Origin: Candidatus Saccharimonadota bacterium
GTDB taxonomy: Bacteria; Patescibacteriota; Patescibacteriia; 2-12-FULL-60-25
Assembly: GCA_016699205.1 (NCBI GenBank)
Contig: CP064964.1
Span: forward strand, 540,001 to 572,000
Reading direction: 5' to 3'
Length of the DNA stretch: 32,000 bases
Positions 8,544 to 28,590 of this stretch are shown piece after piece (the stretch's first letter is position 1; the number at the start of each line of letters is the position of its first letter). Under the pieces are notes generated by a model. The model had not been told where the DNA came from. It ran no database searches and saw only the letters and a list, made by a program, of their open reading frames with translations. The translations under genes were made by a program, and so were the position numbers.

Positions 8544-9428
8544 ATGAAGTCGACATTACGCGCGCTGCTTTCCGTCTTCGCTGTCGGATTGAGTTTTTGG
8601 GTGGGTAGTATGGTCGTTCACGCGGCTCCGGCCGTGGAGCCGAGCTTGTCGACGATCAGCGTTGATAAGGTATCTGCGAAGGCTGACGGCATCGATCAGA
8701 TCCGCGTGAATGTCACGATCAAAAATGCGAATTTCATCGGCGTTGAGAATGCCGATGTTGCGCTCGTATCATCTCGCGGAGCCTTGGATGAAATCTCCCC
8801 TGCTACAGCCAAGACATCGATTACCGGACGCGCCTCGTTTTACGTGAAGTCGTTAAAGAATGGCAGCGCGACCTTGTCTGTCATGCTTAATGGAGCAGCG
8901 TTTCCCAAGAGCGTGAATATTACTTTTGCCGATGGGATCGCTTTAGCCTTGAGTGTTGGCGACTTGATCAAGATTCCGGATGATAATGATGCGAGCACGC
9001 AGCCGGATAGTGCGGTTTACTACTACGCATCCAATGGAAAGCGCTATGTGTTTCCAAATGAAAAGGTTTACTTGAGCTGGTATCCGGATTTTGGAACCGT
9101 GAAGTCGATTCCGATTGATCAAATGTCATTGATTCCGATTGGCGGGAATATCACGTATCGACCTGGCGCCAAGATGGTGAAGTTTCAAACGGATACCAAG
9201 ACTTACTTACCGACAAAAGGCGGAATTTTGCGCTGGGTGCAGACAGAAGAAGTAGCCCGCGGATACTTTGGCACCAACTGGAATCAGCACGTGGATGATA
9301 TTTCTGAAGCGTTCTACGTGAATTACAAATTTGGCGAGCCGATCGGTAGCCCACTCGATCTCTCGCTGCCGATTGTTCAGAGCTCGGTTAACTCGATCAA
9401 TGTCCACCTTGGGCTTGGAGCTCCATAG
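8544..9428 (+). CDS. Secreted protein with a bacterial Ig-like (Big_1/invasin-type) domain
   Basis: The signal peptide is MKSTLRALLSVFAVGLSFWVGSMVVHA. The Ig-like stretch is LSTISVDKVSAKADGIDQIRVNVTIKN...ITGRASFYVKSLKNGSATLSV. Confidence 0.7.
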   Translation: MKSTLRALLSVFAVGLSFWVGSMVVHAAPAVEPSLSTISVDKVSAKADGIDQIRVNVTIKNANFIGVENADVALVSSRGALDEISPATAKTSITGRASFYVKSLKNGSATLSVMLNGAAFPKSVNITFADGIALALSVGDLIKIPDDNDASTQPDSAVYYYASNGKRYVFPNEKVYLSWYPDFGTVKSIPIDQMSLIPIGGNITYRPGAKMVKFQTDTKTYLPTKGGILRWVQTEEVARGYFGTNWNQHVDDISEAFYVNYKFGEPIGSPLDLSLPIVQSSVNSINVHLGLGAP

Positions 9429-9438
9429 TCACGCATCA

Positions 9439-9479
9439 TAATCATAAAACGCTCCCGGTCCGGGAGCGTTTTATGATTA
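9439..9479. terminator. Bidirectional terminator (20-bp perfect stem)
   Basis: TAATCATAAAACGCTCCCGG-T-CCGGGAGCGTTTTATGATTA lies between convergent genes. Confidence 0.8.
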
Positions 9480-9505
9480 CTCTGATTATGTTTTATGTTG
9501 CGTGA

Positions 9506-9865
9506 CTATGCCGTCTTGAGCTTCACCTCTTTGATTTCCTTCATGCGCTTGGAGCTCTTGCGGACGTACTCAATGCTCTTCTTGCGAGCCTTTACCTTTT
9601 TGACGAGTTCGATGCGAGAGATCGATGGGAGCAACATCGGGAAGATCTTTTCTACGCCGACGCCGGAAGCGATCTTGCGGACCGTCATGGTTTTGGCGTG
9701 GGCGCCGCCACCGAGGTTGATGACAAGGCCTTCGTAAACCTGAACACGCTCCTTCTCTTCTCCGGAAGGGCTGACGTCCTTAATTTTCTGGTGCACGCGG
9801 ATGGTCATGCCGGACTCGACTTGCGAGGGCTTGATATCGACGGGCAGGGTTACGAGTTCAGACAT
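9506..9865 (-). CDS. rplS: 50S ribosomal protein L19
   Basis: The product contains ...GMTIRVHQKIKDVSPSGEEKERVQVYEGLVINLGGGAHAKTMTVRKIASGVGVEKIFPMLLPSISRIELVKK..., matching the L19 core (FEG.VI...G.G...TFTVRKI..GVGVE..FP..SP.I..IEV). Confidence 0.9.
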   Translation of the reverse strand: MSELVTLPVDIKPSQVESGMTIRVHQKIKDVSPSGEEKERVQVYEGLVINLGGGAHAKTMTVRKIASGVGVEKIFPMLLPSISRIELVKKVKARKKSIEYVRKSSKRMKEIKEVKLKTA

Positions 9866-9891
9866 AAAAATGAGGGTTAGGAATGGCCCAA

Positions 9892-9920
9892 AGATTAGCC
9901 AAAAGCCGTTAAAACGTCAA
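9892..9920 (-). promoter_or_regulatory. rplS promoter
   Basis: On the minus strand: TTGACG (9920-9915), a 17-nt spacer, then TAATCT (9897-9892). It abuts hairpin 9921-9952. Confidence 0.55.
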
Positions 9921-9952
9921 GGCCCCCGCTCCGAGTGATCGGGGCGGGGGCT
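9921..9952 (-). repeat. Island junction hairpin J5 (after cassette A)
   Basis: The minus strand reads AGCCCCCGC-CCCGATCACTCGGA-GCGGGGGCC. The 30-nt core GCCCCCGCTCCGAGTGATCGGGGCGGGGGC is identical to that of the hairpin at 10719-10750; only the last flanking base differs (C here, T there). Confidence 0.8.
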
Positions 9953-9959
9953 GAGAGAA

Positions 9960-10574
9960 CTACTTCACTTCGCGGAAGGCGACGTAGGCGCAGTCAGCGT
10001 CCCACGCACGGCGGACCTCGCGGTGGAGGCCGAGTTCGCGACGGTTCCCCTTGCGGATGTAGTGGGGTGCGTAGCGATGGAAACCGTCTCTGTCGGCGAG
10101 CCTGTCATCTGACTCAGTGATGAATAGTCTCAAATCTTCAGGGATCGTCGCGTGATCGCCTTCGGGGTTTTGCTGGATCACCCAGGCGATGAAGGCAGCT
10201 GTGTTGCCGATGAAGCCATCCTCGAAGAGACCTCGTACATCGGTAGCTGGTACGAGCTGGCGGCCAGGCTTCCAGATTTGGACCTCGTAGGTCTTGCCGC
10301 GCTCGTCACGAATGAAGCTCCACTTAAGGAGATAGGAACCGAGAGCCCGAGGAGCATCCAGCTGGAGCATCGCCTTCGCCATATTGATTAGAACGGTGGC
10401 GGAGGATACATCGGGAACCGTGATCAGGTCACGTACTTCTTGCTTCCGGCTCTTCTTCGAAGATGCCTTCTTGTACCTGTTGATGAAGCCTTGCGCGTCC
10501 TCGAAGGGCACCTTGCCGGCGACGAGGAGGGCGACGATGGAACCGATCTGTTCTTTGGTGACTTGCTTGTCCAT
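9960..10574 (-). CDS. Island cassette A: hypothetical protein, one copy of the island module (204 aa)
   Basis: The ATG at 10574 is preceded by AAGGAG at a 6-nt spacing (MDKQVTKEQIGSIVALLVAGKVPFEDAQGFINRY...). The C-terminal half reads ...TYEVQIWKPGRQLVPATDVRGLFEDGFIGNTAAFIAWVIQQNPEG...RRELGLHREVRRAWDADCAYVAFREVK*. The track ORF to 10664 reads through the leader. Confidence 0.7.
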   Translation of the reverse strand: MDKQVTKEQIGSIVALLVAGKVPFEDAQGFINRYKKASSKKSRKQEVRDLITVPDVSSATVLINMAKAMLQLDAPRALGSYLLKWSFIRDERGKTYEVQIWKPGRQLVPATDVRGLFEDGFIGNTAAFIAWVIQQNPEGDHATIPEDLRLFITESDDRLADRDGFHRYAPHYIRKGNRRELGLHREVRRAWDADCAYVAFREVK

Positions 10575-10680
10575 GGAACGCTCCTTGGAATCCGTCTGTT
10601 TCCGCTGCTGCGACAAATCGCTTCTGCGGGTTGTTCGGATTTGTGGGAGAGCCGTGATCCGCACGGCGCGGTGAGAATTT
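10556..10680 (-). repeat. 125-bp repeat copy 1: leader + RBS + first 6 codons (MDKQVT)
   Basis: It matches 11822-11946 with 5 mismatches in 125 nt, aligned by eye. Confidence 0.9.
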
Positions 10681-10701
10681 AATACATGAATAATTGGGTT
10701 T

Positions 10702-10750
10702 TGTCAACGGATACAGCAAGCCCCCGCTCCGAGTGATCGGGGCGGGGGCT
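10702..10750 (-). repeat. Junction module J4: hairpin + GCTGTATCCG + TTGACA (-35 of cassette A)
   Basis: The minus strand reads AGCCCCCGCCCCGATCACTCGGAGCGGGGGCT-TGCTGTATCCG-TTGACA. It starts 9 nt after the stop of cassette B. Confidence 0.8.
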
Positions 10751-10758
10751 GGCGAGGG

Positions 10759-11808
10759 TTACTTGCGGATGAGGAGGATGCGGCTGTTGTTGTCGAGCTC
10801 GAGGCCGGCCCAACTACAACACAATACGCGTTCAAGGCTTTCTTCACCCAGTGACGTAACAAACGACTGACCGCTACGATCCCTGTACGAGCCGAGCGTC
10901 GACGAGCCGAGAGCGTAGATCCAGTTCTTACGCTGGAGTTCCGGCTCAGCATTTGCGAACTCGACGGCTTCGACATGGATCGCGAAGCGGTAACCGAGGC
11001 GATCGTAGTGCTCGAAGAGATCGTCCTCGATCGTGTGGATCCGCTTACCGAGGAAGTCGGCTGGGATCTCCGCGACCAAGAACTCGCGCTCGCCCGGGGT
11101 CTCGTCGATCGTGGCGCAGGACTTGTGACGGGTCCACGCGCGACCGTCGAATAGATTGTGGTAGACCTTTGAGAACATCTTCTTGAGCGTGGCGACATCC
11201 GGGAGCGGAGTGTATGTGACGAGGAGGCGGTAGTGGTTGGGTTCGAGGTTGTCGCTGTTTTGCAAGCTGGGTTTGCGCACGGCGAGGAAACGGCAGCTCG
11301 CAGTCCACGGGTCTGGACCGCCGAAACAGCCCATGAGGAGGTTGCGACCACCATCCAAGTACGGCAAGTAGAGGTAGTCGGCGTCGTCCCGGCAGACCGA
11401 ACCGAAAGCAGCGATCGGGTAGTTGCGCCGCTCATCGGGGTACTGCTTGGCTAAGGCCAGCAGCTCCTCGTAGAGAGCGGGGCGCAGTCCCTGACGGTCG
11501 AGCTCGGCGAGGATCGCGTCTGTGTCCAACCTCTTGTCCAGATGCACGAGCTCGAACTCAATCTCGCGGGTCTCCGTCGATACTTCCTTGCAGACGTCGA
11601 TCGGCTTGAACTCCGCGTTCTCGTAGCCTTCGTACACATAGTTGAAATCCTTCTTGAGGTCGGCGTATGAGGGCTGATTGTAGATGACCTCGGCGCGGAA
11701 GCCTGGGGCATAGCTCGGCTCGCGGGACTTCTCCATGATCTCCACCCCTCCTTCGATGATCGCCTGCGCATGGTTGTGAACGATCGCACCTTTGGCGAGC
11801 ATGTTCAC
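10759..11808 (-). CDS. Island cassette B: hypothetical protein with two island modules (349 aa from GTG 11808; the true N-terminus is probably the frameshifted MDKQVT start at 11840)
   Basis: Module 1 reads ...EIEFELVHLDKRLDTDAILAELDRQGLRPALYEELLALAKQYPDERRNYPIAAFGSV...CRFLAVRK. Module 2 reads ...WTRHKSCATIDETPGEREFLVAEIP...LGYRFAIHVEAVEFANAEPELQRKNWIYALGSS...SRILLIRK*. Confidence 0.75.
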   Translation of the reverse strand: MNMLAKGAIVHNHAQAIIEGGVEIMEKSREPSYAPGFRAEVIYNQPSYADLKKDFNYVYEGYENAEFKPIDVCKEVSTETREIEFELVHLDKRLDTDAILAELDRQGLRPALYEELLALAKQYPDERRNYPIAAFGSVCRDDADYLYLPYLDGGRNLLMGCFGGPDPWTASCRFLAVRKPSLQNSDNLEPNHYRLLVTYTPLPDVATLKKMFSKVYHNLFDGRAWTRHKSCATIDETPGEREFLVAEIPADFLGKRIHTIEDDLFEHYDRLGYRFAIHVEAVEFANAEPELQRKNWIYALGSSTLGSYRDRSGQSFVTSLGEESLERVLCCSWAGLELDNNSRILLIRK

Positions 11809-11840
11809 GATCTCTGCTGTCTGGTGACTTGCTTGTCCAT
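11805..11840 (-). other. 11-codon ORF MDKQVTRQQRS* overlapping the GTG of cassette B (remnant of its original 5' end)
   Basis: It has the same AAGGAG-N6-ATG GAC AAG CAA GTC ACC start as cassette A. Its TGA overlaps the GTG of cassette B (GTGA). Confidence 0.6.
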
Positions 11841-11946
11841 GGAACGCTCCTTGGAATCCGTCTGTTTCCGCTGCTGCGACGAATCGCTTCTGCGGGTTAT
11901 TCGGATTTGTTGGAGAGCCGTGATCCGCACGGCGCGGTGAAGATTT
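11822..11946 (-). repeat. 125-bp repeat copy 2: leader + RBS + MDKQVT
   Basis: See 10556-10680. Confidence 0.9.
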
Positions 11947-11967
11947 CTTATATCAAAATATGCATTT

Positions 11968-12016
11968 TGTCAACGGATACAGCGAGCCCCCGCACCGAAG
12001 GAATCGGGGCGGGGCT
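11968..12016 (-). repeat. Junction module J3: hairpin + GCTGTATCCG + TTGACA (-35 of cassette B)
   Basis: The minus strand reads AGCCCCGCCCCGATTCCTTCGGTGCGGGGGCT-CGCTGTATCCG-TTGACA-AAATGCATATTTTGATATAAG. Confidence 0.8.
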
Positions 12017-12023
12017 GTAGGGG

Positions 12024-13103
12024 CTAGTTGCGGACGAGGAGGAGGCGATCCATCTCGTCCAGTTTGCTCTCGTACATCTCACTGCTGATTGCAACGGAAT
12101 ACATGCGGGCAGGAGGTGTCGGGTCCGGGAAGAAGCTGAGTTCCATCACGTGGATTCCTCCGACGCCGTGCGAGTACGTGGAGGGGTCGACTTCCACCGA
12201 GGAACCGAGGGTGAGAATTCTTCTGTAGTGATGGAGAAGCGTCGAGCGCTTTTTGATGAATTCGAATGCCTCTGTCTCGATCGCAAAGCGATAGCCCTCA
12301 CGATCGAAGTGGGCAGCGAGCTCATTCCAAGCTTGTTGGATGCTCTGTCCGTGAAACACCTCGGGAAGCTTTGCCAAGCGGAGCACGCGCTCACCGGGAG
12401 TCGTGTCGACAGCTGAGCAAGAGCTGTGACGCTCCCACCTGCATCCATCAAACGCAGGCGAAACGACGGGATTATCCTCGTCGAAAGAGTCTTCGGAAAG
12501 TCTCAGCAACGCCGATTCTAGTTCGCCGATTCCCGGGAGCGGTTCATAGCCGAGCTGCATCCGGTAATGCATCGACGGCGCCGCTCCGATTCTGAGCGCG
12601 AGATCGGCATCCGTCATACGGACGAGCAGCACGCTTTCGACGCCCACTTCCTCACTCCACTCATCGACCAAGTAGCGACCATCTCCATTCTCGCCAATGC
12701 TCGCTACGTAACAATAGGTGCCATGAATGAATGACGAGCCGAGTGCGGTGACGTGCTCTACCCACGCCGTACTTGGGCAAGTCACTGCAAACTCAATTAG
12801 CTCTCCAACGACAGCAAAGCGGAAACCGAGCTTCTCGTAATACGACGAAAGCCAGCTCCACTCCATGCGCTCATCGTCCGCTTGCTCCGAGAACTCCTTG
12901 GGGACATCCGCGATCCAGAAATCGCGCTCACCCGGCGTTTCATCGACTCGCTCGCAGGAGTTGTGCCGCTCCCACAGCCGAAAGTCGTCCTCGGAAAACC
13001 ATTCCGAGATCGCCTCTTCGGGAAGCAGCTTCTTGAGCTCTGCCAACGCTGGGAGCGGATTGTAGCTCACGAAGATCCGAAAGCGCTTTTCTTCTGTTGT
13101 CAC
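12024..13103 (-). CDS. Island cassette C: hypothetical protein with two tandem island modules (359 aa)
   Basis: The GTG start at 13103 follows GAGGTG. Module 1 reads FRIFVSYNPLPALAELKKLL...WERHNSCERVDETPGERDFWIADVP...LGFRFAVVGELIEFAV...VTALGSS...SVLLVRM. Module 2 reads YRMQLGYEPLPGIGELESALL...WERHSSCSAVDTTPGERVLRLAKLP...EGYRFAIETEAFEFIKK...ILTLGSS...DRLLLVRN*. Confidence 0.8.
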   Translation of the reverse strand: MTTEEKRFRIFVSYNPLPALAELKKLLPEEAISEWFSEDDFRLWERHNSCERVDETPGERDFWIADVPKEFSEQADDERMEWSWLSSYYEKLGFRFAVVGELIEFAVTCPSTAWVEHVTALGSSFIHGTYCYVASIGENGDGRYLVDEWSEEVGVESVLLVRMTDADLALRIGAAPSMHYRMQLGYEPLPGIGELESALLRLSEDSFDEDNPVVSPAFDGCRWERHSSCSAVDTTPGERVLRLAKLPEVFHGQSIQQAWNELAAHFDREGYRFAIETEAFEFIKKRSTLLHHYRRILTLGSSVEVDPSTYSHGVGGIHVMELSFFPDPTPPARMYSVAISSEMYESKLDEMDRLLLVRN

Positions 13104-13142
13104 AGAACACCTCGTGCTTTATTTATATCAAAATAGGCATTT

Positions 13143-13191
13143 TGTCAACGGATACAGCAAGCCCCCGCTCCAAGTAATCAGGGCGGGGGCT
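13143..13191 (-). repeat. Junction module J2: hairpin + GCTGTATCCG + TTGACA (-35 of cassette C)
   Basis: The minus strand reads AGCCCCCGCCCTGATTACTTGGAGCGGGGGCT-TGCTGTATCCG-TTGACA-AAATGCCTATTTTGATATAAA. Confidence 0.8.
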
Positions 13192-13198
13192 GGAGAGG

Positions 13199-13927
13199 TC
13201 AGACTGGCTCATGGATAAGTAGAAGGGCGTAATTCCACTTTCGCATACTAATTGCACGCAGAGAACGATCTCTGAAGGGTTCGTGCGCATACGTAACGCG
13301 CAAAGCGCGATCGTACCCCTTGTTCCGCATCGTCAGGTACATGAAACTACGTTGGCCGTTGCCGTCACAAACAGAAGTTCCAAGAGGAAAAATTCTGTGG
13401 GCGCGCTGGAGATGAGGCTGGGCTTGCGAGAACTTGATCGCTTCTACCAAGTTCGCAAACCGGTATCCCTTACATTCGAAGCACTTTCTCAGCCCCTCTT
13501 CTCTTTCCTGATAGATATCCGCCTCTCTCAGGAGCGGCGTGTTATCGATCACATCCCTCGTTACGATGAACTCACTTGGAACTTGCACGACCAAGAAGTC
13601 ACGTTCACCAGGTGTCTCATCGATCGTCTCATGATCGATCCAGTCAAGCCGCTTGAGCACCCTTGAGACGCTGTGCTTTCCAGAAAACATCTGCTCTAGA
13701 GCTTCGAAATCCGTTGGCTTGCTGTAGTCGACATGAATTCGATAGTGCTTGCCCTCGAGAAGCGGCGGGCTCTCTCGTGTGGGTAGCTCGCCTCCCTCGA
13801 TCAGAGCTTGCAAGCCCTTAAGCGCGACATCGATAGGAACCGATCCTTCGCGCACTCGGCGGAAGAGGTCGTGGTATCGGCGGGCTAATTGACCGAGCTG
13901 TTCGTCGGAGACATCGCGAGACGTCAT
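13199..13927 (-). CDS. Island cassette D: hypothetical protein, one island module plus a helical N-terminal region (242 aa)
   Basis: AAGGAGG lies 7 nt before the ATG at 13927. The product reads ...HYRIHVDYSKPTDFEALEQMF...IDHETIDETPGERDFLVVQVP...KGYRFANLVEAIKFSQAQPHLQRAHRIFPLGTS...YALLLIHEPV*. The N-terminus (EQLGQLARRY...VPIDVALKGLQALIEGG) resembles the N-termini of A and B. Confidence 0.8.
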   Translation of the reverse strand: MTSRDVSDEQLGQLARRYHDLFRRVREGSVPIDVALKGLQALIEGGELPTRESPPLLEGKHYRIHVDYSKPTDFEALEQMFSGKHSVSRVLKRLDWIDHETIDETPGERDFLVVQVPSEFIVTRDVIDNTPLLREADIYQEREEGLRKCFECKGYRFANLVEAIKFSQAQPHLQRAHRIFPLGTSVCDGNGQRSFMYLTMRNKGYDRALRVTYAHEPFRDRSLRAISMRKWNYALLLIHEPV

Positions 13928-14015
13928 GACAAACCTCCTTGTGATGGAACAAGTCCTTCTGTGACACAGAATGCGTCTTGATGGACGGCGTTTATTTATA
14001 TCAAAATAGGCGTCT

Positions 14016-14064
14016 TGTCAACGGATACAGCAAGCCCCCGCGCCGAAGGAATCGGGCGGGGGCG
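14016..14064 (-). repeat. Junction module J1: hairpin + GCTGTATCCG + TTGACA (-35 of cassette D)
   Basis: The minus strand reads CGCCCCCGCCCGATTCCTTCGGCGCGGGGGCT-TGCTGTATCCG-TTGACA-AGACGCCTATTTTGATATAAA. Confidence 0.8.
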
Positions 14065-14069
14065 GTTGA

Positions 14070-14573
14070 TCAGATCTTCACGAAAAGATATCGGTGATTG
14101 GGACGGCATGCCGAGTCGGCCCCAGTATAGACCAATCCACGGAATGGGGTCTTGAGCCCTTCGTGCTGCTTCACTGTGAAGTAGAGATGAATTGTCTTGT
14201 CCGCGGTGTCTCGATGGTTCCGGAAGGTACCTAGATCGACGATGCGATCATAGTCCTCCGTGATAGGGATATCGGGTCGCGCGAGAAAGAAGGCATTTCG
14301 CTCCGATGGGAATGCTACTCGGCAACCGTTGGACATTGCCCACTCGAGGACTTCTGCATCGGTACTCCGCATGGGTTCATCCTTCGCGAACTCCTTGAGA
14401 ACGAAGTCGATCTCCCCTTTCTTCGGACGAAAATCCTTAAGTGACTCATGAAGCTCCCAGCCTTCTGTCAACGACATGCCTTCCGACACATAGATCTTCA
14501 GTGACTCGAGCATCACCTCCCCCAACAAGGACATATCGACACGGAAATACTGTTCTGACTGGTTCTTGCTCAC
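14070..14573 (-). CDS. Island cassette E: hypothetical protein, a divergent island module (167 aa)
   Basis: GGAGG lies 4 nt before the GTG at 14573. The product reads ...GEIDFVLKEFAKDEPMRSTDAEVLEWAMSNGCRVAFPSERNAFFLARPDI...RIVDLGT...HRYLFVKI*. Confidence 0.7.
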   Translation of the reverse strand: MSKNQSEQYFRVDMSLLGEVMLESLKIYVSEGMSLTEGWELHESLKDFRPKKGEIDFVLKEFAKDEPMRSTDAEVLEWAMSNGCRVAFPSERNAFFLARPDIPITEDYDRIVDLGTFRNHRDTADKTIHLYFTVKQHEGLKTPFRGLVYTGADSACRPNHRYLFVKI

Positions 14574-14580
14574 GTTACCT

Positions 14581-14612
14581 CCAAAACAAAACTGGCATAT
14601 AAAGCCAGTTTT
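14581..14612 (-). terminator. Probable original uvrA terminator, now downstream of the uvrA 3' remnant
   Basis: The minus strand reads AAAACTGGC-TTTATAT-GCCAGTTTT-GTTTTGG, starting 9 nt after the remnant stop codon. Confidence 0.6.
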
Positions 14613-14621
14613 GTCAATCCC

Positions 14622-14663
14622 TTACATCAGCTCCTTCAGATACTTTCCGGTCCACCTCTTCTT
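14622..14663 (-). pseudogene. Displaced duplicate of the uvrA 3' end (KKRWTGKYLKELM*)
   Basis: The minus strand AAG AAG AGG TGG ACC GGA AAG TAT CTG AAG GAG CTG ATG TAA compares with the uvrA 3' end at 15273-15232, AAG AAA TCT TGG ACT GGG AAG TAC TTG AAG GAG CTG ATA TAA. 33 of 42 nt are identical. Of the 7 differing codons, 5 are synonymous; the other two encode S>R and the terminal I>M. Confidence 0.75.
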
Positions 14664-14668
14664 TATAC

Positions 14669-15232
14669 TCAGGGCACAAAGTTTTTTGATACATACAGAA
14701 GTTCCATGCCTGGCTCTATTAGATCATCAATATCGATTCTGTTTAACGTCCACCCGTTTGCACCCTCACCTTCATTTTCATCTTCATATAATTCAGCTAT
14801 GCAACGCGCTCCACCCTTCCAGACCGTCGATGAGCCCATAACGAGAATATCTCGATCTATGATCATGCGATCAGAATATACTCTCGCGAAACTCACCGCC
14901 TCATCAATTACTGCAAAACGATAACCTAGCTTATCCAAAAAACTCGCCAGTTCGTCCCACACTTCTTTGATTTTTTTATTGTGAAACTTCTCCGGGATAT
15001 TTCCAATAAAGAATTCGCGTAATTTGGTAAACTCATCAACCCCCTCACAGGAGGGATGATTCACCCACGTAAGTAAAACGCGTAGGTTAAGCGGGTCATC
15101 TATCCAATCTCCTGTCTTACGAACTTCTTCAGGAGTACGATGATCGTAATTCACTTCGACTAAATAACTCCGAAGCACTTTTTGTTCAGACGACTGGTCT
15201 TGGTTAAGTGGCATACGGTAAATTACAGACAT
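14669..15232 (-). CDS. Island cassette F: hypothetical protein, AT-rich member of the island family (187 aa)
   Basis: The ATG at 15232 overlaps the uvrA stop (TAATG). The uvrA codons AAG GAG provide an SD 8 nt upstream. The product is MSVIYRMPLNQDQSSEQKVLRSYLVEVNYDHRTPEEV...HPSCEGVDEFTKLREFFIGNIP...LGYRFAVIDEAVSFARV...ILVMGSS...MELLYVSKNFVP*. The track ORF start at 15265 lies inside uvrA. Confidence 0.75.
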   Translation of the reverse strand: MSVIYRMPLNQDQSSEQKVLRSYLVEVNYDHRTPEEVRKTGDWIDDPLNLRVLLTWVNHPSCEGVDEFTKLREFFIGNIPEKFHNKKIKEVWDELASFLDKLGYRFAVIDEAVSFARVYSDRMIIDRDILVMGSSTVWKGGARCIAELYEDENEGEGANGWTLNRIDIDDLIEPGMELLYVSKNFVP

Positions 15233-18141
15233 TATATCAGCTCCTTCAAGTACTTCCCAGTCCAAGATTTCTTATTCTTAGCAATCACTTCCGGTGTTCC
15301 TTCTGCGACGAGAGTACCGCCGCGCAATCCTCCCTCTGGTCCCATGTCGATGACCCAGTCGGCGAGACTGACGACGTCGAGATTGTGCTCGATGACGAGG
15401 ACGGTGTTTCCTTTATCGACCAAAGCGTTCAGAACGACCATGAGGCGCTTAATATCGTCAAAATGGAGACCTGTGGTCGGTTCATCCAGAATATAGAGCG
15501 TACGGCCTGTAGCGCGTCTGGAGAGCTCGGTAGCGAGTTTAACGCGCTGAGCTTCACCGCCAGAGAGCGTGGTGGCCGGCTGACCTAATCGAACATAGCC
15601 GAGACCAACCTCATGCAGGACGGAACGCTTCTCGTAGATCGCGGGTTGGTCAACGAAGAAACGTCGACCTTCTTCAACGGTCATGTCGAGAACGTCGGCG
15701 ATGGTTTTGCCGCGGTAGTGAATCTCGAGCGCTTCCGAGTTGTAGCGCTTGCCGTGACACTCGTGACACTCGACGTAGACGTCGGGCAAAAATTGCATGG
15801 CGATCTGGATGTAGCCGTCTCCGCCACACGGTTCACAGCGTCCGCCGCCTTTGACGTTGAACGAGAATTTGCCGGCATCAAAGCCGCGCATCTTGGCTTC
15901 CGGGATTTCCGTGTAGAGATCGCGGATCGCGGTGAAGACACCGGTGTAGGTGGCTGGGTTGGAGCGAGGCGTGCGGCCGATTGGCGATTGGTCGACTGAG
16001 ACAACTTTATCCAAATGCTCCATGCCCTCGATCTTTTTATGTTCTGCGACCGGATCTTTGGCGCCAAAGAAGTGGCTCGAGAGAGCACGGCCGAGAATAT
16101 CGAGGACGAGCGTTGATTTACCGGAACCCGAAACACCCGTGACACAGACGAGCTGAGCCAATGGGAATTTCACATCGACATTCTTGAGGTTGAAGGCTGT
16201 GGCACCGCGCACGGTGATGGCTTTGCCACTCCCCTTGCGACGCGTCTTGGGCTTGTCGAGCTTCATCTTGCCGGAGAGATATTGTCCGGTGACGGATTCC
16301 TTGTCCTTTTTAATTTCCGCGAGCGTACCTTCGGAAATAATGTGGCCGCCGTATTCACCAGCACCTGGGCCGACGTCGACAATCCAGTCGGCGGCTTTCA
16401 TGACGGCGTCGTCATGCTCAACAACGATGACGGTGTTGCCGAGATCGCGAAGACGCTTGATGGTGTGGATCAGCTTATCGTTGTCGCGCGGATGCAAGCC
16501 GATGGAAGGCTCATCGAGAATATAGATGACGCCGGACAATTCCGAGCCGAGCTGGGCTGCCAGACGCACGCGCTGGGCTTCTCCGCCGGAAAGCGACATA
16601 GCTGAACGGTCAAGCGTCAGATAATCCAAACCGACGTCCATCAAATTTTGAAGGCGGCGGCGGATTTCTCCGGAGACTTGGTCGACAACGAGACGCTCAC
16701 GCTCGGTGAATCCGTTGGCGTCCGGCTTTTTATCGCCCTTGAGTTTGGCGATTTTGGAACCTTTGAACGCGGCGGAATCTTTTGCCTTGCCCGTACCCTT
16801 TCCTAAGCCTTGGAAGAAGGCGAGAACTTCATCGAGCGGCAAAAAGACGAGGTCGGCGAGCGATTTGCTGGCAACCGTGACAGCGAGCGACTCTTTGCGC
16901 AGACGGCGACCCTGACAATCGGGACAGGTGAGGACGCGCATGTAGGCCTCGATTTCTTTTTGGACGTATTCCGAATCGGTTTCTTTGTGCTTGGCCTCGA
17001 GCATCGCCAAAATACCTTCGAACTCGCCATCGCCCTCAAATAAAGCCTTCAATGCTTTTGGCGAGAACTCTCCGACAGGTTGATTGATGGTGAAACCGTG
17101 CTTGGCACCGACTTCTTCCAGCTTTTTTACATGGGCCGTTTGATTTCCAGCGATGCGCGTCCACGGCTTGATCGCTCCTTGGGCGATGGTGAGCTTTTTG
17201 TTTGGAATCACGAGCTCCGGTTCAAGCACGAGCTTGGTTCCGAGACCGGTACAGGCGGGACAAGCGCCATGCGGCGAGTTGAAGGAGAAAAGACGCGGCT
17301 CGAGCGTTGGTAAGGAAATATTACAGTTGGCGCAGAACAAGGATTGCGAGAAGAGTTTTTCATCGCCCGTGTCCTCGTTGATGGTCATGACCAAGCCGTT
17401 TCCAAAATCGAGCGTCTGTTTTACAAACTCGAGCATGGAATCGATGACGACGCCCGAACCTTTGGTGAGGCGCTGAACCACAACCTCAATGGTGTGCTCG
17501 GCTGTTTTGTCGATGCGGGAGTGAAGGATCTCGTCCAAGTCGACAATGGTGCCGTCAAAACGAACTTCACGGAAACCAGCGTTCTTCACGCTCTGCATCG
17601 CGACTTTGTGCTCGCCTTTTTGGGCGCGGACAATCGGCGCCATCAATAGAATGGTTGATTTGTTGGCGAGTTCCAAAACTTTGTCCGCGATTTCACGCGT
17701 CGTCTGCTCGATCACGGCTGAACCGCATTGCACGCAGTGGGCGCGGCCGGCGCGGGCGTAGAGGAGGCGTAGGAAATCGTAAACTTCCGTCACGGTACCG
17801 ACGGTGGAGCGCGGATTGTGGGAAGTGGTCTTTTGATCGATAGCGATGGTCGGTGAAAGACCCGTGATCTCATCGACATCAGGCTTGTCCTGCAGCTCCA
17901 TGAATTGTCGTGCGTATGACGACATCGATTCCATGTAGCGGCGCTGGCCCTCAGCGTGGATGGTATCGAAGGCGAGAGAAGATTTTCCCGATCCAGAGAG
18001 ACCTGTCACAACAATAAAGTTGTTTTTTGGCAGGTCGATCGAAACATTCTTCAAGTTATGGACGCGGGCTCCTTTAATGGAGATCGTGTCATGCAACTTC
18101 TTGGATGGCATGTTGGCGGCGAGGCTACCACCGATAGACAT
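15232..18141 (-). CDS. uvrA: Excinuclease ABC subunit A
   Basis: The Walker A motifs are GLSGSGKSSLAFDT and GVSGSGKSTLV, and LSGGEAQR occurs twice. Zinc-finger pairs are CVQCG, CANC...CPAC, CPDCQG and CEPCGGDG...CHECHG. The start is uncertain: TTG 18150, ATG 18141 or ATG 18111. Confidence 0.95.
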   Translation of the reverse strand: MSIGGSLAANMPSKKLHDTISIKGARVHNLKNVSIDLPKNNFIVVTGLSGSGKSSLAFDTIHAEGQRRYMESMSSYARQFMELQDKPDVDEITGLSPTIAIDQKTTSHNPRSTVGTVTEVYDFLRLLYARAGRAHCVQCGSAVIEQTTREIADKVLELANKSTILLMAPIVRAQKGEHKVAMQSVKNAGFREVRFDGTIVDLDEILHSRIDKTAEHTIEVVVQRLTKGSGVVIDSMLEFVKQTLDFGNGLVMTINEDTGDEKLFSQSLFCANCNISLPTLEPRLFSFNSPHGACPACTGLGTKLVLEPELVIPNKKLTIAQGAIKPWTRIAGNQTAHVKKLEEVGAKHGFTINQPVGEFSPKALKALFEGDGEFEGILAMLEAKHKETDSEYVQKEIEAYMRVLTCPDCQGRRLRKESLAVTVASKSLADLVFLPLDEVLAFFQGLGKGTGKAKDSAAFKGSKIAKLKGDKKPDANGFTERERLVVDQVSGEIRRRLQNLMDVGLDYLTLDRSAMSLSGGEAQRVRLAAQLGSELSGVIYILDEPSIGLHPRDNDKLIHTIKRLRDLGNTVIVVEHDDAVMKAADWIVDVGPGAGEYGGHIISEGTLAEIKKDKESVTGQYLSGKMKLDKPKTRRKGSGKAITVRGATAFNLKNVDVKFPLAQLVCVTGVSGSGKSTLVLDILGRALSSHFFGAKDPVAEHKKIEGMEHLDKVVSVDQSPIGRTPRSNPATYTGVFTAIRDLYTEIPEAKMRGFDAGKFSFNVKGGGRCEPCGGDGYIQIAMQFLPDVYVECHECHGKRYNSEALEIHYRGKTIADVLDMTVEEGRRFFVDQPAIYEKRSVLHEVGLGYVRLGQPATTLSGGEAQRVKLATELSRRATGRTLYILDEPTTGLHFDDIKRLMVVLNALVDKGNTVLVIEHNLDVVSLADWVIDMGPEGGLRGGTLVAEGTPEVIAKNKKSWTGKYLKELI

Positions 18142-18149
18142 ATATGACA

Positions 18150-18171
18150 AGAGCCACCCCCTGGCGGCTCT
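18150..18171 (-). terminator. Hairpin between the Cys-rich protein gene and uvrA
   Basis: The minus strand reads AGAGCCGCC-AGGG-GGTGGCTCT. Pairing is complete only on this strand (one G-U pair). It is followed by a U-rich stretch. Confidence 0.45.
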
Positions 18172-18196: not shown

Positions 18197-20455
18197 TTAC
18201 GGGGTACAGGTGCCGATACCGGCCGTCATATCCATTGGACGATCAAAGCTTGCAAAGACGCCGCCGCTCGCCCCTGGTTCAAAGCGGCACGTGCCTGATT
18301 GGCATTGGCCGTTGAAGTCACACTTAGAACCGTTCACGCGAACTGGGTAACAAGCCGCTTTTTCTACACGAACCGGATTTACCGCATCGAGACCATCGAT
18401 GGGTGTACCGAGATATGAACCCGTGAAGTTGATGGCGAATTCTGTTGCTGACCAAGTTGATGCGCTGCAGCCAGTCGTACACGCGCCTTCAAGCTGATCG
18501 CGCGGCGGAGAGGCTCCTGTTGGAGGACGAGGAATGCCGCTCTCGGCACGGATGGCGCAGAATCCCGTACAGACACCGCCGACACACATCGAGGAACATT
18601 CGCTATCGGAAGAGCAGGATGCGCCGATTGGTTTGCGGCAGCCAAAGCGTGCGTAGCTCCATGGACGGAGATTTTCTGGGGCGTTTTCAAAGTTCCATGA
18701 GTAGGCGACGCCGGTATTCCCAAAGAGTGTCGCATATTCCTCTTCCGAGCATCGATTTGGATTTGCGGCCGAGGTTGAACATCGATAGCGATGGCTCATG
18801 CAGAAGCTGTCGACACCGCTGCCGGAAACACGATTACATCCGCCTTCCCAATTGCTGATGATATTGGTTTCTTGGTAGTAACGCTCACCCCCTCCTGGAC
18901 CATAGAACAAGCTTGAACATACGGGGCGCGGGTCAAGCTCGTAGTCGCGATAGTCGCCGGTAACGCAGCGCCCGACTTGTTCTTCATTACCCTGCTGACA
19001 GGTGAAGCCGGCAGCACATGGAATCTGCGGATCTGCGGCCATGTTGCACACGCTGCCTGTTTCTCCGGTCAAACAGCGCCAGAGACCCTCGATCTGCTGA
19101 CAGGTCCCCTCCTGACACGCGACCTGCATCGTTCCATTGTTATTTGTCGGACTTCCGTCTTCCGATGTGCGCACATCGCAACCGCCGGAGCATCGGCAGA
19201 GCTCATTGGCACGACCTTGCGTACATTGTCCGCTGGAAAGACCTTCCGTATTTGACGTGCGTAGACAGACGCGGCCTTCACGGCATTGAGAATCTCTTAC
19301 ACATGCAGGAATCGCCCCGCCCTCATCGGCATTTGGGTCCCGAGCGGTCGAGGAGGCGCTGATCCCGACGCATTCAATACTCTCCGGATTAAGGCGGAAT
19401 TGCGTTGTGCTTGGATTGATTGTTTGGAGAATCGAGTACGCCGCGAGGACCACGACCATGCCGATCAGAGCATCGCGAATAATCTGTTTGCCGCGCTGAA
19501 TAGATCCGATGCCCGCTGCACCCGTCAGGTAGAGGAATCCTCCATAAACAACCATGACGATCGCGACCACGAGAATGATCGAGACAAGGTAGCGGTAGAC
19601 CGTATTAATATATTCCGGCAAACCGGTGACTTGTTGAATGCCGCCGATATTAACCCCAAGCGTGATCGGAACTGGTGCATCGTCCGATGGATCGCAGGCT
19701 GCCGAATAACCTGCACTGCTGTCGGCTACCGCGGCACTTGGAGAATCAACGTCAGCGACGGCGTCTGGGAAGACTTGGTCTGCTTCAGAACCTGTTGGAC
19801 AACTAGAAGGCGTGCCGCCACCAGCGATTCCAGGAGCGAGGGCGCAGGCCCAGGCGCGGTATCCTTCTCCGGTGAGGTGGGAGTTGCGGCTACGGATCTG
19901 AGATTCGCCGTTGCCCGGGTTTGTTTCTTGCTGGAATGGGCCAGCCGCGCTTCCGGGACGGCCGTCGATCCAGCGGGCGCCGAGACTCGGTACATACGAT
20001 GATTGAACCGTTGCGGTGCGGTCATGTCTTTCCTGTACGCCTTCATCGCGGCTTGTAGCGGGACCGATCCAGACGACGTCGGCGCCGCGGGCGTGGGCAT
20101 CGTTATAGGCTTGGCGGAGTTTGGTTTCGTAGGCTGTACGGCTTGCTCCGGAGGTTTGGACATCGTCATTGCCGCCGATAATCAGGATGACGAGCTGCGG
20201 GTTACGAGAATTCACCATGCTTGAGATGGTGTTGTTATCTAGGAACCAGCGCAGACCCTTACCTGCATGCGAGGACTGACCCGTGACCTCGACATCGTAC
20301 CCTGCGAGCGCTGTTGTAAGCGGGCGATGCAGACCCTGAGCCTGGCTATCGCCGATGATGACGGCTGTGCGCGCGTCTGCCGCAACCGGGAAAGCGATCG
20401 CGATCGCAAATACAAAAGAAGCGGTCAGCGAAAGGAGCGGGCGGAAAAAACGCAT
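18197..20455 (-). CDS. Large surface protein: signal peptide + SGNH/GDSL-like hydrolase + pilin-like two-TM hairpin + Cys-rich C-terminal domain (752 aa)
   Basis: The signal peptide is MRFFRPLLSLTASFVFAIAIAFPVAADA. SGNH blocks are VIIGDSQAQG, LVILIIGGNDD and VVWIGP. The TM hairpin YLVSIILVVAIVMVVYGGFLYLTGAAGIGSIQRGKQIIRDALIGMVVVLAAYSILQTINP looks like the TrbC/VirB2-type pilin module common in CPR surface proteins. I counted about 33 Cys in the last ~375 aa, with C..D.QC..G.C-type repeats. Confidence 0.7.
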   Translation of the reverse strand: MRFFRPLLSLTASFVFAIAIAFPVAADARTAVIIGDSQAQGLHRPLTTALAGYDVEVTGQSSHAGKGLRWFLDNNTISSMVNSRNPQLVILIIGGNDDVQTSGASRTAYETKLRQAYNDAHARGADVVWIGPATSRDEGVQERHDRTATVQSSYVPSLGARWIDGRPGSAAGPFQQETNPGNGESQIRSRNSHLTGEGYRAWACALAPGIAGGGTPSSCPTGSEADQVFPDAVADVDSPSAAVADSSAGYSAACDPSDDAPVPITLGVNIGGIQQVTGLPEYINTVYRYLVSIILVVAIVMVVYGGFLYLTGAAGIGSIQRGKQIIRDALIGMVVVLAAYSILQTINPSTTQFRLNPESIECVGISASSTARDPNADEGGAIPACVRDSQCREGRVCLRTSNTEGLSSGQCTQGRANELCRCSGGCDVRTSEDGSPTNNNGTMQVACQEGTCQQIEGLWRCLTGETGSVCNMAADPQIPCAAGFTCQQGNEEQVGRCVTGDYRDYELDPRPVCSSLFYGPGGGERYYQETNIISNWEGGCNRVSGSGVDSFCMSHRYRCSTSAANPNRCSEEEYATLFGNTGVAYSWNFENAPENLRPWSYARFGCRKPIGASCSSDSECSSMCVGGVCTGFCAIRAESGIPRPPTGASPPRDQLEGACTTGCSASTWSATEFAINFTGSYLGTPIDGLDAVNPVRVEKAACYPVRVNGSKCDFNGQCQSGTCRFEPGASGGVFASFDRPMDMTAGIGTCTP

Positions 20456-28107: not shown

Positions 28108-28533
28108 CTAGCTTAAGGCTTTTTCAATACGTTTATCCGTATGTGCAATAATTTTGGAGTATTGATCAGCCAATTTGTCGTCTAGATAGTCTTTGGTGAC
28201 CATGCGCGATTCCACGCGGTTAATACGAAACTCCATCTTATCTGACTGATCGGCCAACTCGCGAATAGCCTCCATAGTTTCCATATGTACCCCATCAATC
28301 TTCCCATCCAGGCTCGCAACCTTCCCATCCAAGTTCGCTATCTTCCCATCCAGGCTCGCAACCTTCCCATCCAAGTTCGCTATCTTCCCATCCAGGCTCG
28401 CAACCTTCCCATCCAACCCTTCAATTTTCCCGTCGATCTTCGAAAAACCCGTATCCATCTTTTCATTAAGACGGTTTAACTCTTTAAGGATCTCTCGGTT
28501 GGAAACATCGTTCGGCGAGGTTTTCATTTTCAT
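28108..28533 (-). CDS. Coiled-coil protein with LDGK(V/I)A(S/N) heptad tandem repeats (141 aa)
   Basis: GGAG lies 8 nt before the ATG at 28533. The product is MKMKTSPNDVSNREILKELNRLNEKMDTGFSKIDGKIEGLDGKVASLDGKIANLDGKVASLDGKIANLDGKVASLDGKIDG... Confidence 0.7.
   Translation of the reverse strand: MKMKTSPNDVSNREILKELNRLNEKMDTGFSKIDGKIEGLDGKVASLDGKIANLDGKVASLDGKIANLDGKVASLDGKIDGVHMETMEAIRELADQSDKMEFRINRVESRMVTKDYLDDKLADQYSKIIAHTDKRIEKALS
28300..28404. repeat. Perfect tandem repeat, 42-bp unit x 2.5 (alternating 21-mers), inside 28108..28533
   Basis: CTTCCCATCCAGGCTCGCAAC and CTTCCCATCCAAGTTCGCTAT alternate as A-B-A-B-A with no mismatch. Degenerate copies flank the block on both sides. Confidence 0.95.
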
Positions 28534-28590
28534 ATGATACACTCCGTTCCACTTTTTGCCTGCCCAGTCAAGTGGATAACCAAAAGAAGA

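Follow-up and report, generated by a model that had tools for sequence, protein, structure and literature searches.

The locus studied here raises a simple question: why does a housekeeping repair gene appear to end twice? In the genome of a Candidatus Saccharimonadota bacterium (assembly GCA_016699205.1, contig CP064964.1), the gene uvrA is followed by a short gene, here called F, and F is followed in turn by a second, diverged copy of the last 42 nt of uvrA and by an intrinsic terminator. We analysed this arrangement in the 32-kb window formed by positions 540,001 to 572,000 of the contig, in which all the genes from uvrA to rplS discussed here lie on the minus strand (Table 1). The layout suggests that the second copy and its hairpin once formed the 3' end and terminator of the resident uvrA and were displaced by an insertion bearing F, a reading to which we give a probability of about 0.6.

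The similarity of the two tails is beyond what chance would produce. They are identical at 33 of 42 positions (79%; repeat finder and alignment) with a copy-to-copy spacing of 610 nt, and the second one, which we call the remnant, begins 5 nt past the TGA stop of F (14669-14671). Similarity breaks off sharply beyond the repeat (4/30 identical positions upstream, 8/30 downstream), and the second-best 42-mer across the window matches at only 23/42. At least 33 identities are expected by chance about 2e-8 times window-wide (binomial, all 63,918 positions), and the best of 200 shuffles reached 28/42. A sequence-only reading of this DNA had described the diverged duplicate, with its positions, its 33 identities and its 7 differing codons, and had named a match no better than in shuffled sequence as grounds for dropping it; we recovered every one of these facts, and the match lies far above chance. 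Of the differing codons, five are synonymous and the others change S to R and I to M. Nine random substitutions left two or fewer amino acid changes and no stop in just 0.035% of trials (P = 3.5e-4). Since the differences are mostly synonymous, the copies must have diverged while each was a working uvrA tail, which bears out the proposal that they come from different uvrA alleles and not from a recent local duplication. The idea that the tails are alike by chance, or that the uvrA end was duplicated locally in tandem and then drifted, has nothing in its favour besides the shortness of the repeat. It is effectively refuted by the shuffles, the window-wide expectation and the alignment, whose synonymous pattern does not look like random decay, and it sits badly with a second strain that has a third version of the tail at the same place with unrelated DNA downstream; we hold it to be barely credible. 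Older remnants of the uvrA tail were sought at the other cassette junctions and none was found, the best matches (22-23/42) being at noise level.

The hairpin behind the remnant (14585-14615; 12 bp, then U's) folds at -17.5 kcal/mol (z = -4.05), and none of 200 shuffles folds as well. It had been called orphaned. This does not hold, since it sits 54 nt past the F stop, where it would terminate the uvrA-F transcript; judged from its position, it is displaced rather than orphaned. The second strain has a different and equally good terminator after the remnant (-24.5 kcal/mol). An alignment of the uvrA 3' ends and downstream regions of relatives, as the earlier reading had proposed, gives the context: an intrinsic terminator directly follows the uvrA stop, F is absent from the position, and the clade has kept the tail peptide (KKS-W/L-TGKYLK...). 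Hence, the remnant with its hairpin has the form of a normal uvrA end. Over its C-terminal 300 aa, uvrA shows 84-86% amino acid identity to Candidatus Uhrbacteria and other Patescibacteria metagenome-assembled genomes, and no uvrA closer than ~86% is on record; the bacterium is a member of the Patescibacteria close to Ca. Uhrbacteria. The relatives carry rplS within 0.1-4 kb of uvrA, and in a genus-level neighbour (L002) rplS starts 72 nt past the uvrA stop on the same strand, with an empty uvrA-rplS junction. Homologues of the cassette proteins A to F were found at none of 160 other related uvrA loci, so the whole array is lineage-specific.

F is also foreign to the locus by composition. Its G+C content at third codon positions (GC3) is 0.39, compared with 0.65 in uvrA and 0.59-0.79 in cassettes A to E, which makes F the compositional outlier. 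The overall G+C had been put at ~40% and measures 42%. F is the only open reading frame (ORF) of the 610-nt insert. The insert had been described as F alone, about 610 bp long. The spacing of the copies agrees with that length, but the block shared between strains is ~666 nt long and includes the last 78 nt of uvrA. The sharp change of divergence at ~15313 shows that these 78 nt and F form one block, that is, that the uvrA anchor is contiguous with the foreign DNA.

Table 1. Features of the uvrA-to-rplS region in window coordinates, with the differences from the second strain, L001.
Feature	Position	Strand	Description	Mismatches with L001
uvrA	15232-18150	-	Intact, 972 aa; Pfam UvrA_inter, UvrA_DNA-bind, ABC_tran	
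uvrA segment before the diverged patch	15680-15829			0 in 150 nt
Diverged uvrA patch	15313-15679	-	Differs between two strains; mosaic recombination tract (mismatch map against L001)	46 in 367 nt (12.5%)
Live uvrA tail	15232-15273	-	KKSWTGKYLKELI, then stop; AT-richer; TCT Ser codon; AAGGAG 8 nt before F start	
F block	14647-15312	-	Last 78 nt of uvrA, F, 5-nt spacer, first 17 nt of remnant	8 in 666 nt (1.2%)
F	14669-15232	-	187 aa, 564 nt; uncharacterised domain family; G+C 0.42, GC3 0.39	
Putative displaced uvrA tail (remnant)	14622-14663	-	KKRWTGKYLKELM, then stop; 33/42 identical to live tail	
Last 25 nt of remnant	14622-14646			9 in 25 nt
Intrinsic terminator	14581-14615	-	12-bp hairpin at 14585-14615 and U run	
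Terminator and E	14064-14621			Unrelated sequence
Cassette E	14070-14573	-	167 aa; unrelated 121-aa gene instead in L001 and L162	
71-nt inter-cassette repeat	13996-14066	-	G+C-rich hairpin and TTGACA...TATAA; strain homology resumes here after the E swap	
Cassette D	13199-13927	-	F-domain member	
Cassette C	12024-13103	-	Two F-domain copies	Absent from L001
Cassette B	10759-11808	-	Two F-domain copies	
Cassette A	9960-10664	-	Not a detectable member of the F family	
rplS (L19)	9506-9865	-	Pfam Ribosomal_L19; conserved uvrA neighbour in relatives; far end of the lineage-specific array	

How the region has changed since can be read from the second strain, L001 (GCA_020051655.1), which matches the window at ~98.7% identity across D, B, A and rplS and further on. 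L001 lacks cassette C and has, in the position of E, a 121-aa gene (L001 1440-1805; L162 230-595; G+C 0.60) that has no Pfam match and resembles neither the window's E nor the F family. An independent contig confirms each haplotype, L162 the L001 type and L164 the window type. Divergence between them changes abruptly at ~15313 and ~15680 in uvrA and again at position 17/18 of the remnant, breakpoints that agree with the earlier claim of recombination at the uvrA end. Over the part of uvrA compared (15235-15949) there are 50 synonymous and 2 nonsynonymous differences. The remnant of L001 (KKRWTGKFTKELM, then stop) has its first 17 nt in common with the window and its last 25 nt strain-specific, and the two tail copies of L001 are 62% identical. 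Homology restarts at 14063, where the 71-nt repeat that lies upstream of D begins, and the swapped unit runs from remnant position 18 to the start of that repeat (14646-14064). Divergence in place cannot yield unrelated DNA. At least one haplotype must therefore stem from an exchange in which the other DNA had a uvrA tail at its left edge, which means that the remnant was used as homology. On this comparison, the uvrA 3' end and the first array positions are a mosaic recombination zone. Discontinuous donor tracts after transformation have been reported (PMC13344027).

These observations suggest the following history. The incoming DNA, from a diverged and AT-richer relative, would have brought F joined to a uvrA 3' end by the TAATG overlap, in which the F start codon shares the A of the uvrA TAA. 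This segment would have recombined into the chromosome with uvrA homology as the anchor, and the joint on the far side would have formed 42 nt upstream of the resident stop codon. Thereby uvrA would have remained whole, with the incoming tail, and the resident gene's own tail and terminator would have shifted ~610 nt downstream. Three routes could fit: homology-facilitated illegitimate recombination (HFIR), integration of a small circular intermediate by a single crossover, or a double crossover with donor DNA already built in this way. Later, the remnant would have served as a short homology arm, with a haplotype crossover at position 17/18, to the right of which each haplotype would have received its own uvrA-tail end, terminator and E gene. 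Insertion by anchor homology that pushes older genes downstream has been described (PMC5361080, PMC2935791), and Patescibacteria are reported to have comEC, pili and homologous-recombination genes (PMC12455944). The strains do not differ in the 53 nt left of the putative crossover, where ~6.6 differences would be expected at the local divergence (P ~0.001), and for this reason independent integrations of a circle into both backgrounds fit poorly. The sequence-only reading, in which incoming DNA with its own uvrA end displaces the resident one, was largely right in kind; the direction and mechanism it assumed go further than the layout demonstrates.

Could a recombinase have done the same? Genomic islands, integrative and mobilizable elements (IMEs) and cis-mobilizable elements (CIMEs) integrate in the 3' ends of protein and tRNA genes by means of tyrosine or serine recombinases. 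On that view, the tail copies would be attL and attR, bounding a small element that inserts at the 3' end of uvrA, supplies a replacement tail and has since decayed until only F is left; like a CIME, it could now be mobilised in trans only. The locus shares with such islands a target 3' end duplicated as a direct repeat around DNA of foreign composition, with the target gene left intact, and the remnant junction falls at the same position in both haplotypes. Yet no integrase, transposase or other recombinase was found in the 610-nt insert or anywhere in the 32-kb window (Pfam and further scans), and the insert consists of a single 564-nt gene. The longest identical run between the copies is 13 nt in the window strain and at most 5 nt in L001, with differences spread along the repeat and no clear identical core. 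Moreover, relatives of F were found neither on viral contigs nor in phage records, and the family members elsewhere that we inspected (L165, L166) have no flanking gene-tail duplicates. Site-specific integration is thus quite unlikely in our view. Since there is no recombinase and no convincing identical core, recombination anchored in uvrA is the best-supported mechanism.

A further question is which copy came in. We infer from composition and from a serine codon that the remnant is resident and the live tail incoming, and the evidence from codons is only suggestive. The conserved serine codon is TCT in the AT-richer live tail, and the remnants have AGG at that codon; AGY is used by 18/21 relatives (at least 70% identity over the last 60 aa of uvrA). 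A single step separates AGY from AGG, against two or more from TCT, which speaks for the remnant being the resident copy. The order of events could nevertheless be reversed. F would already have been fused at the uvrA stop, and a unit of uvrA tail, terminator and E, with the remnant as its left edge, would have been imported later from a strain with E directly behind uvrA and joined illegitimately just past F and homologously in the 71-nt repeat. The strain-variable unit consists of exactly the 3' part of the tail, the terminator and E, with the 71-nt repeat as its right bound; evidently, a uvrA tail accompanies E units when they move. The age of the F block, discussed below, also agrees with this order. 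Against it, the outlier in composition is F and not E (GC3 0.64-0.70 in the two variants), the remnant codon and not the live one is a step from the clade-typical AGY, and both strains share the left joint, so that a later crossover inside the remnant would still be needed. We regard the reverse order as unlikely.

Several observations weigh against an insertion of F that displaced the resident tail. Divergence in the F block (1.2%) equals the strain baseline (1.2-1.3%), so that the block is no younger than the strain split; F moving into a second background and flanks being replaced around F therefore look alike in these data, and the strain differences may reflect later imports on the flanks of F and not a movement of F. 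The two closest relatives (L082, L085) use a TCG serine codon, which weakens the codon argument, and a test of direction based on the base composition of the diverged uvrA patch (23 versus 15 substitutions) points clearly in neither direction. Crossover within 17-42 nt of imperfect homology is inefficient for RecA-type recombination. At the joint that is not anchored, where HFIR would predict 3-10 nt of microhomology, the sequence reads GTAT(A/T) on one side and AAGAAG on the other. Finally, the strain variants lacking the 14664-15231 segment, a search for which had been proposed as a check, did not turn up. The search combined exact-protein look-ups (F, D, A, E and the records P0002 and P0003, which are the window's own F sequence), scans of genomes and metagenomes with the uvrA C terminus, and a search of proteins for uvrA alleles ending in a remnant-type tail, and it recovered no F-less strain of the species. 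The same-species material consists of L001, L162, L163 and L164 only, all consistent with the presence of F, and each contig that reaches the site has both F and the remnant. Still, the strain-specific halves of the remnant imply that donors lacking F should have existed.

How would F be expressed from this position? We infer that the uvrA promoter drives its transcription and that ribosomes re-initiate at the overlapping stop and start codons to translate it. The claim that F has no promoter of its own agrees with a consensus scan of 9400-15800, which detected no promoter-like site upstream of F or elsewhere in that range, using a scanner that also missed the hairpin at 14585-14615 and the TTGACA...TATAA units of the repeats. 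F had further been assigned a Shine-Dalgarno (SD) motif made of the uvrA codons AAG GAG. The motif is there, at the proposed distance, but the argument is weak, because SD-like motifs occur at about 6/19 window gene starts examined and AAGGAG encodes the Lys-Glu of the conserved tail; re-initiation seems more defensible than an SD-driven start. Across the window, the starts with such a motif are those of cassettes C, D, E and F and of two other genes, and most housekeeping genes have none (metK, rplS, RNase J, tRNA synthetase and others). Translation initiation in this genome may be largely SD-independent, with the array genes as exceptions. Cassette E starts 12 nt past the terminator stem, with a good GGAGG and no room for a promoter, and a TTGACA at 14612-14617 lacks a -10 element that could serve it; read-through from uvrA-F may be what E relies on.

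F belongs to a large uncharacterised family. F, D and both halves of each of C and B share a domain of ~165 aa with the motifs W.RH.SC..DETPGER.F, GYRFA..EA..F and LGSS, of which A and both E variants show no detectable trace. A profile search (E <= 1e-3) gathered 1,205 representative clusters at 50% identity, all unnamed, and neither F nor the family matched Pfam, PADLOC, PHROGs, NCBIfam or a profile search of PDB sequences. The AlphaFold model of F (predicted local distance difference test, pLDDT, 78; predicted template modelling score, pTM, 0.78) had no significant structural neighbour in PDB or BFVD (Foldseek). In other genomes of the candidate phyla radiation (CPR), members stand singly between core genes (rpoB, ribosomal-protein operons, rplA/rplK) and not beside uvrA. 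The strain-variable tandem paralogues of the array suggest, as far as sequence can tell, a role under diversifying pressure. A more daring idea, which we consider a long shot, is that the F block is a "homing" cassette without recombinase, with uvrA homology on both sides, and that its family are selfish genes lodged between Patescibacteria core genes. If so, such a cassette could enter any related uvrA allele by ordinary homologous recombination after DNA uptake, restoring the essential tail and borrowing the transcription and translation of uvrA.

Beyond E, the array is organised by another repeated element. Copies of a 71-nt repeat (13996-14066, 13123-13193, 11948-12018 and 10682-10752, with the hairpin alone at 9922-9953) are 75-89% identical and separate cassettes E to A, each placed a few nt past a cassette stop. 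The repeat consists of a 30-nt G+C-rich hairpin followed by TTGACA, ~15 nt and TATAA. It looks like a portable terminator-plus-promoter unit, the promoter part of which is putative. The junction at which cassette C is present in the window and absent from L001 lies inside this repeat. An integron reading was considered and rejected. attC sites are imperfect palindromes ending in GTTRRRY after each promoterless cassette; here, GTTGACA does not fit GTTRRRY, the repeats look like a terminator with a promoter, neither intI nor attI was found in the window, and the genes that border the array are uvrA and rplS. Within the array we also noted a 205-nt direct repeat (10547-10751 and 11813-12017; 87% identical) that places the 5' end of cassette A (~39 codons) in the leader of cassette B, where a 41-aa ORF (11805-11930) results; the feature is present in L001 as well.

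Several known systems resemble this locus in part. HFIR has been proposed for the sequential displacement of effector-immunity modules of Vibrio cholerae's type VI secretion system (T6SS) (PMC5361080, which cites de Vries & Wackernagel 2002, Prudhomme et al. 2002 and Meier & Wackernagel 2003 for HFIR). There as here, a conserved upstream gene is the homologous anchor to which foreign DNA is attached, older material is pushed back downstream, the newest gene stands beside the anchor and no recombinase is involved. In contrast, the anchor at our locus is a housekeeping repair gene and not a secretion or toxin gene, a single event is visible, the other cassettes being split by the 71-nt repeat without further uvrA remnants, and the donor and the illegitimate joint are putative. 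The C-terminal displacement of rhs and contact-dependent growth inhibition (CDI) genes (Jackson et al. 2009, PMC2935791) is similar in that a gene's 3' fragment is repeated downstream of a low-G+C insert and the displaced copy lacks a start codon; exactly this geometry would result if a circular intermediate were integrated by a single crossover. The incoming tip of rhs is, however, a different toxic C terminus with an immunity gene, whereas here the incoming tail would be the same peptide save two changes and the payload a separate gene, and no toxin or immunity domain was detected in F and its relatives (Pfam, PADLOC, NCBIfam, PDB). Replacement flexible genomic islands (PMC4033161), which homologous recombination in their flanks maintains, likewise show different genes at one position, as do the two E variants and the presence or absence of C, with breakpoints in conserved flanks, here the remnant and the 71-nt repeats. 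They span many kilobases and not one gene, and one of the flanks here is a mere 42-nt gene-tail remnant.

The rest of the window holds metK, an ABC-F protein, rluD, cmk, DsbA, RNase J, a tRNA synthetase and similar genes. Just upstream of uvrA, a 752-aa protein (18197-20455) combines a DUF459/GDSL-like hydrolase domain, a segment like type IV secretion system (T4SS) pilins and a long Cys-rich C-terminal region. Between rplS and a convergent Big_1-domain gene (8544-9428), a perfect 20-nt palindrome at 9439-9479 (TAATCATAAAACGCTCCCGG and CCGGGAGCGTTTTATGATTA), kept in L001, is probably a bidirectional terminator. An ORF at 28108-28542 contains ~8 tandem 21-nt units (28277-28445; 7-aa periodicity) and matches coiled-coil models (DUF7310 and others).

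What does this locus mean for the biology of these bacteria? The process is a known one, 3'-end displacement by homology-anchored recombination, in a new instance, and current concepts are unchanged. It would extend such displacement from toxin loci to a housekeeping gene of a candidate-phylum bacterium, with a scar that was reused as a recombination arm. The locus would thus be a small and clean example of how streamlined Patescibacteria gain genes without the machinery of mobile elements: anchored recombination would add a gene, mend its target with an imported tail and leave a datable scar. As a recombination arm, the scar would help the turnover of neighbouring genes between strains. Finally, the locus draws attention to a sizeable protein family that is wholly unannotated and varies between strains.

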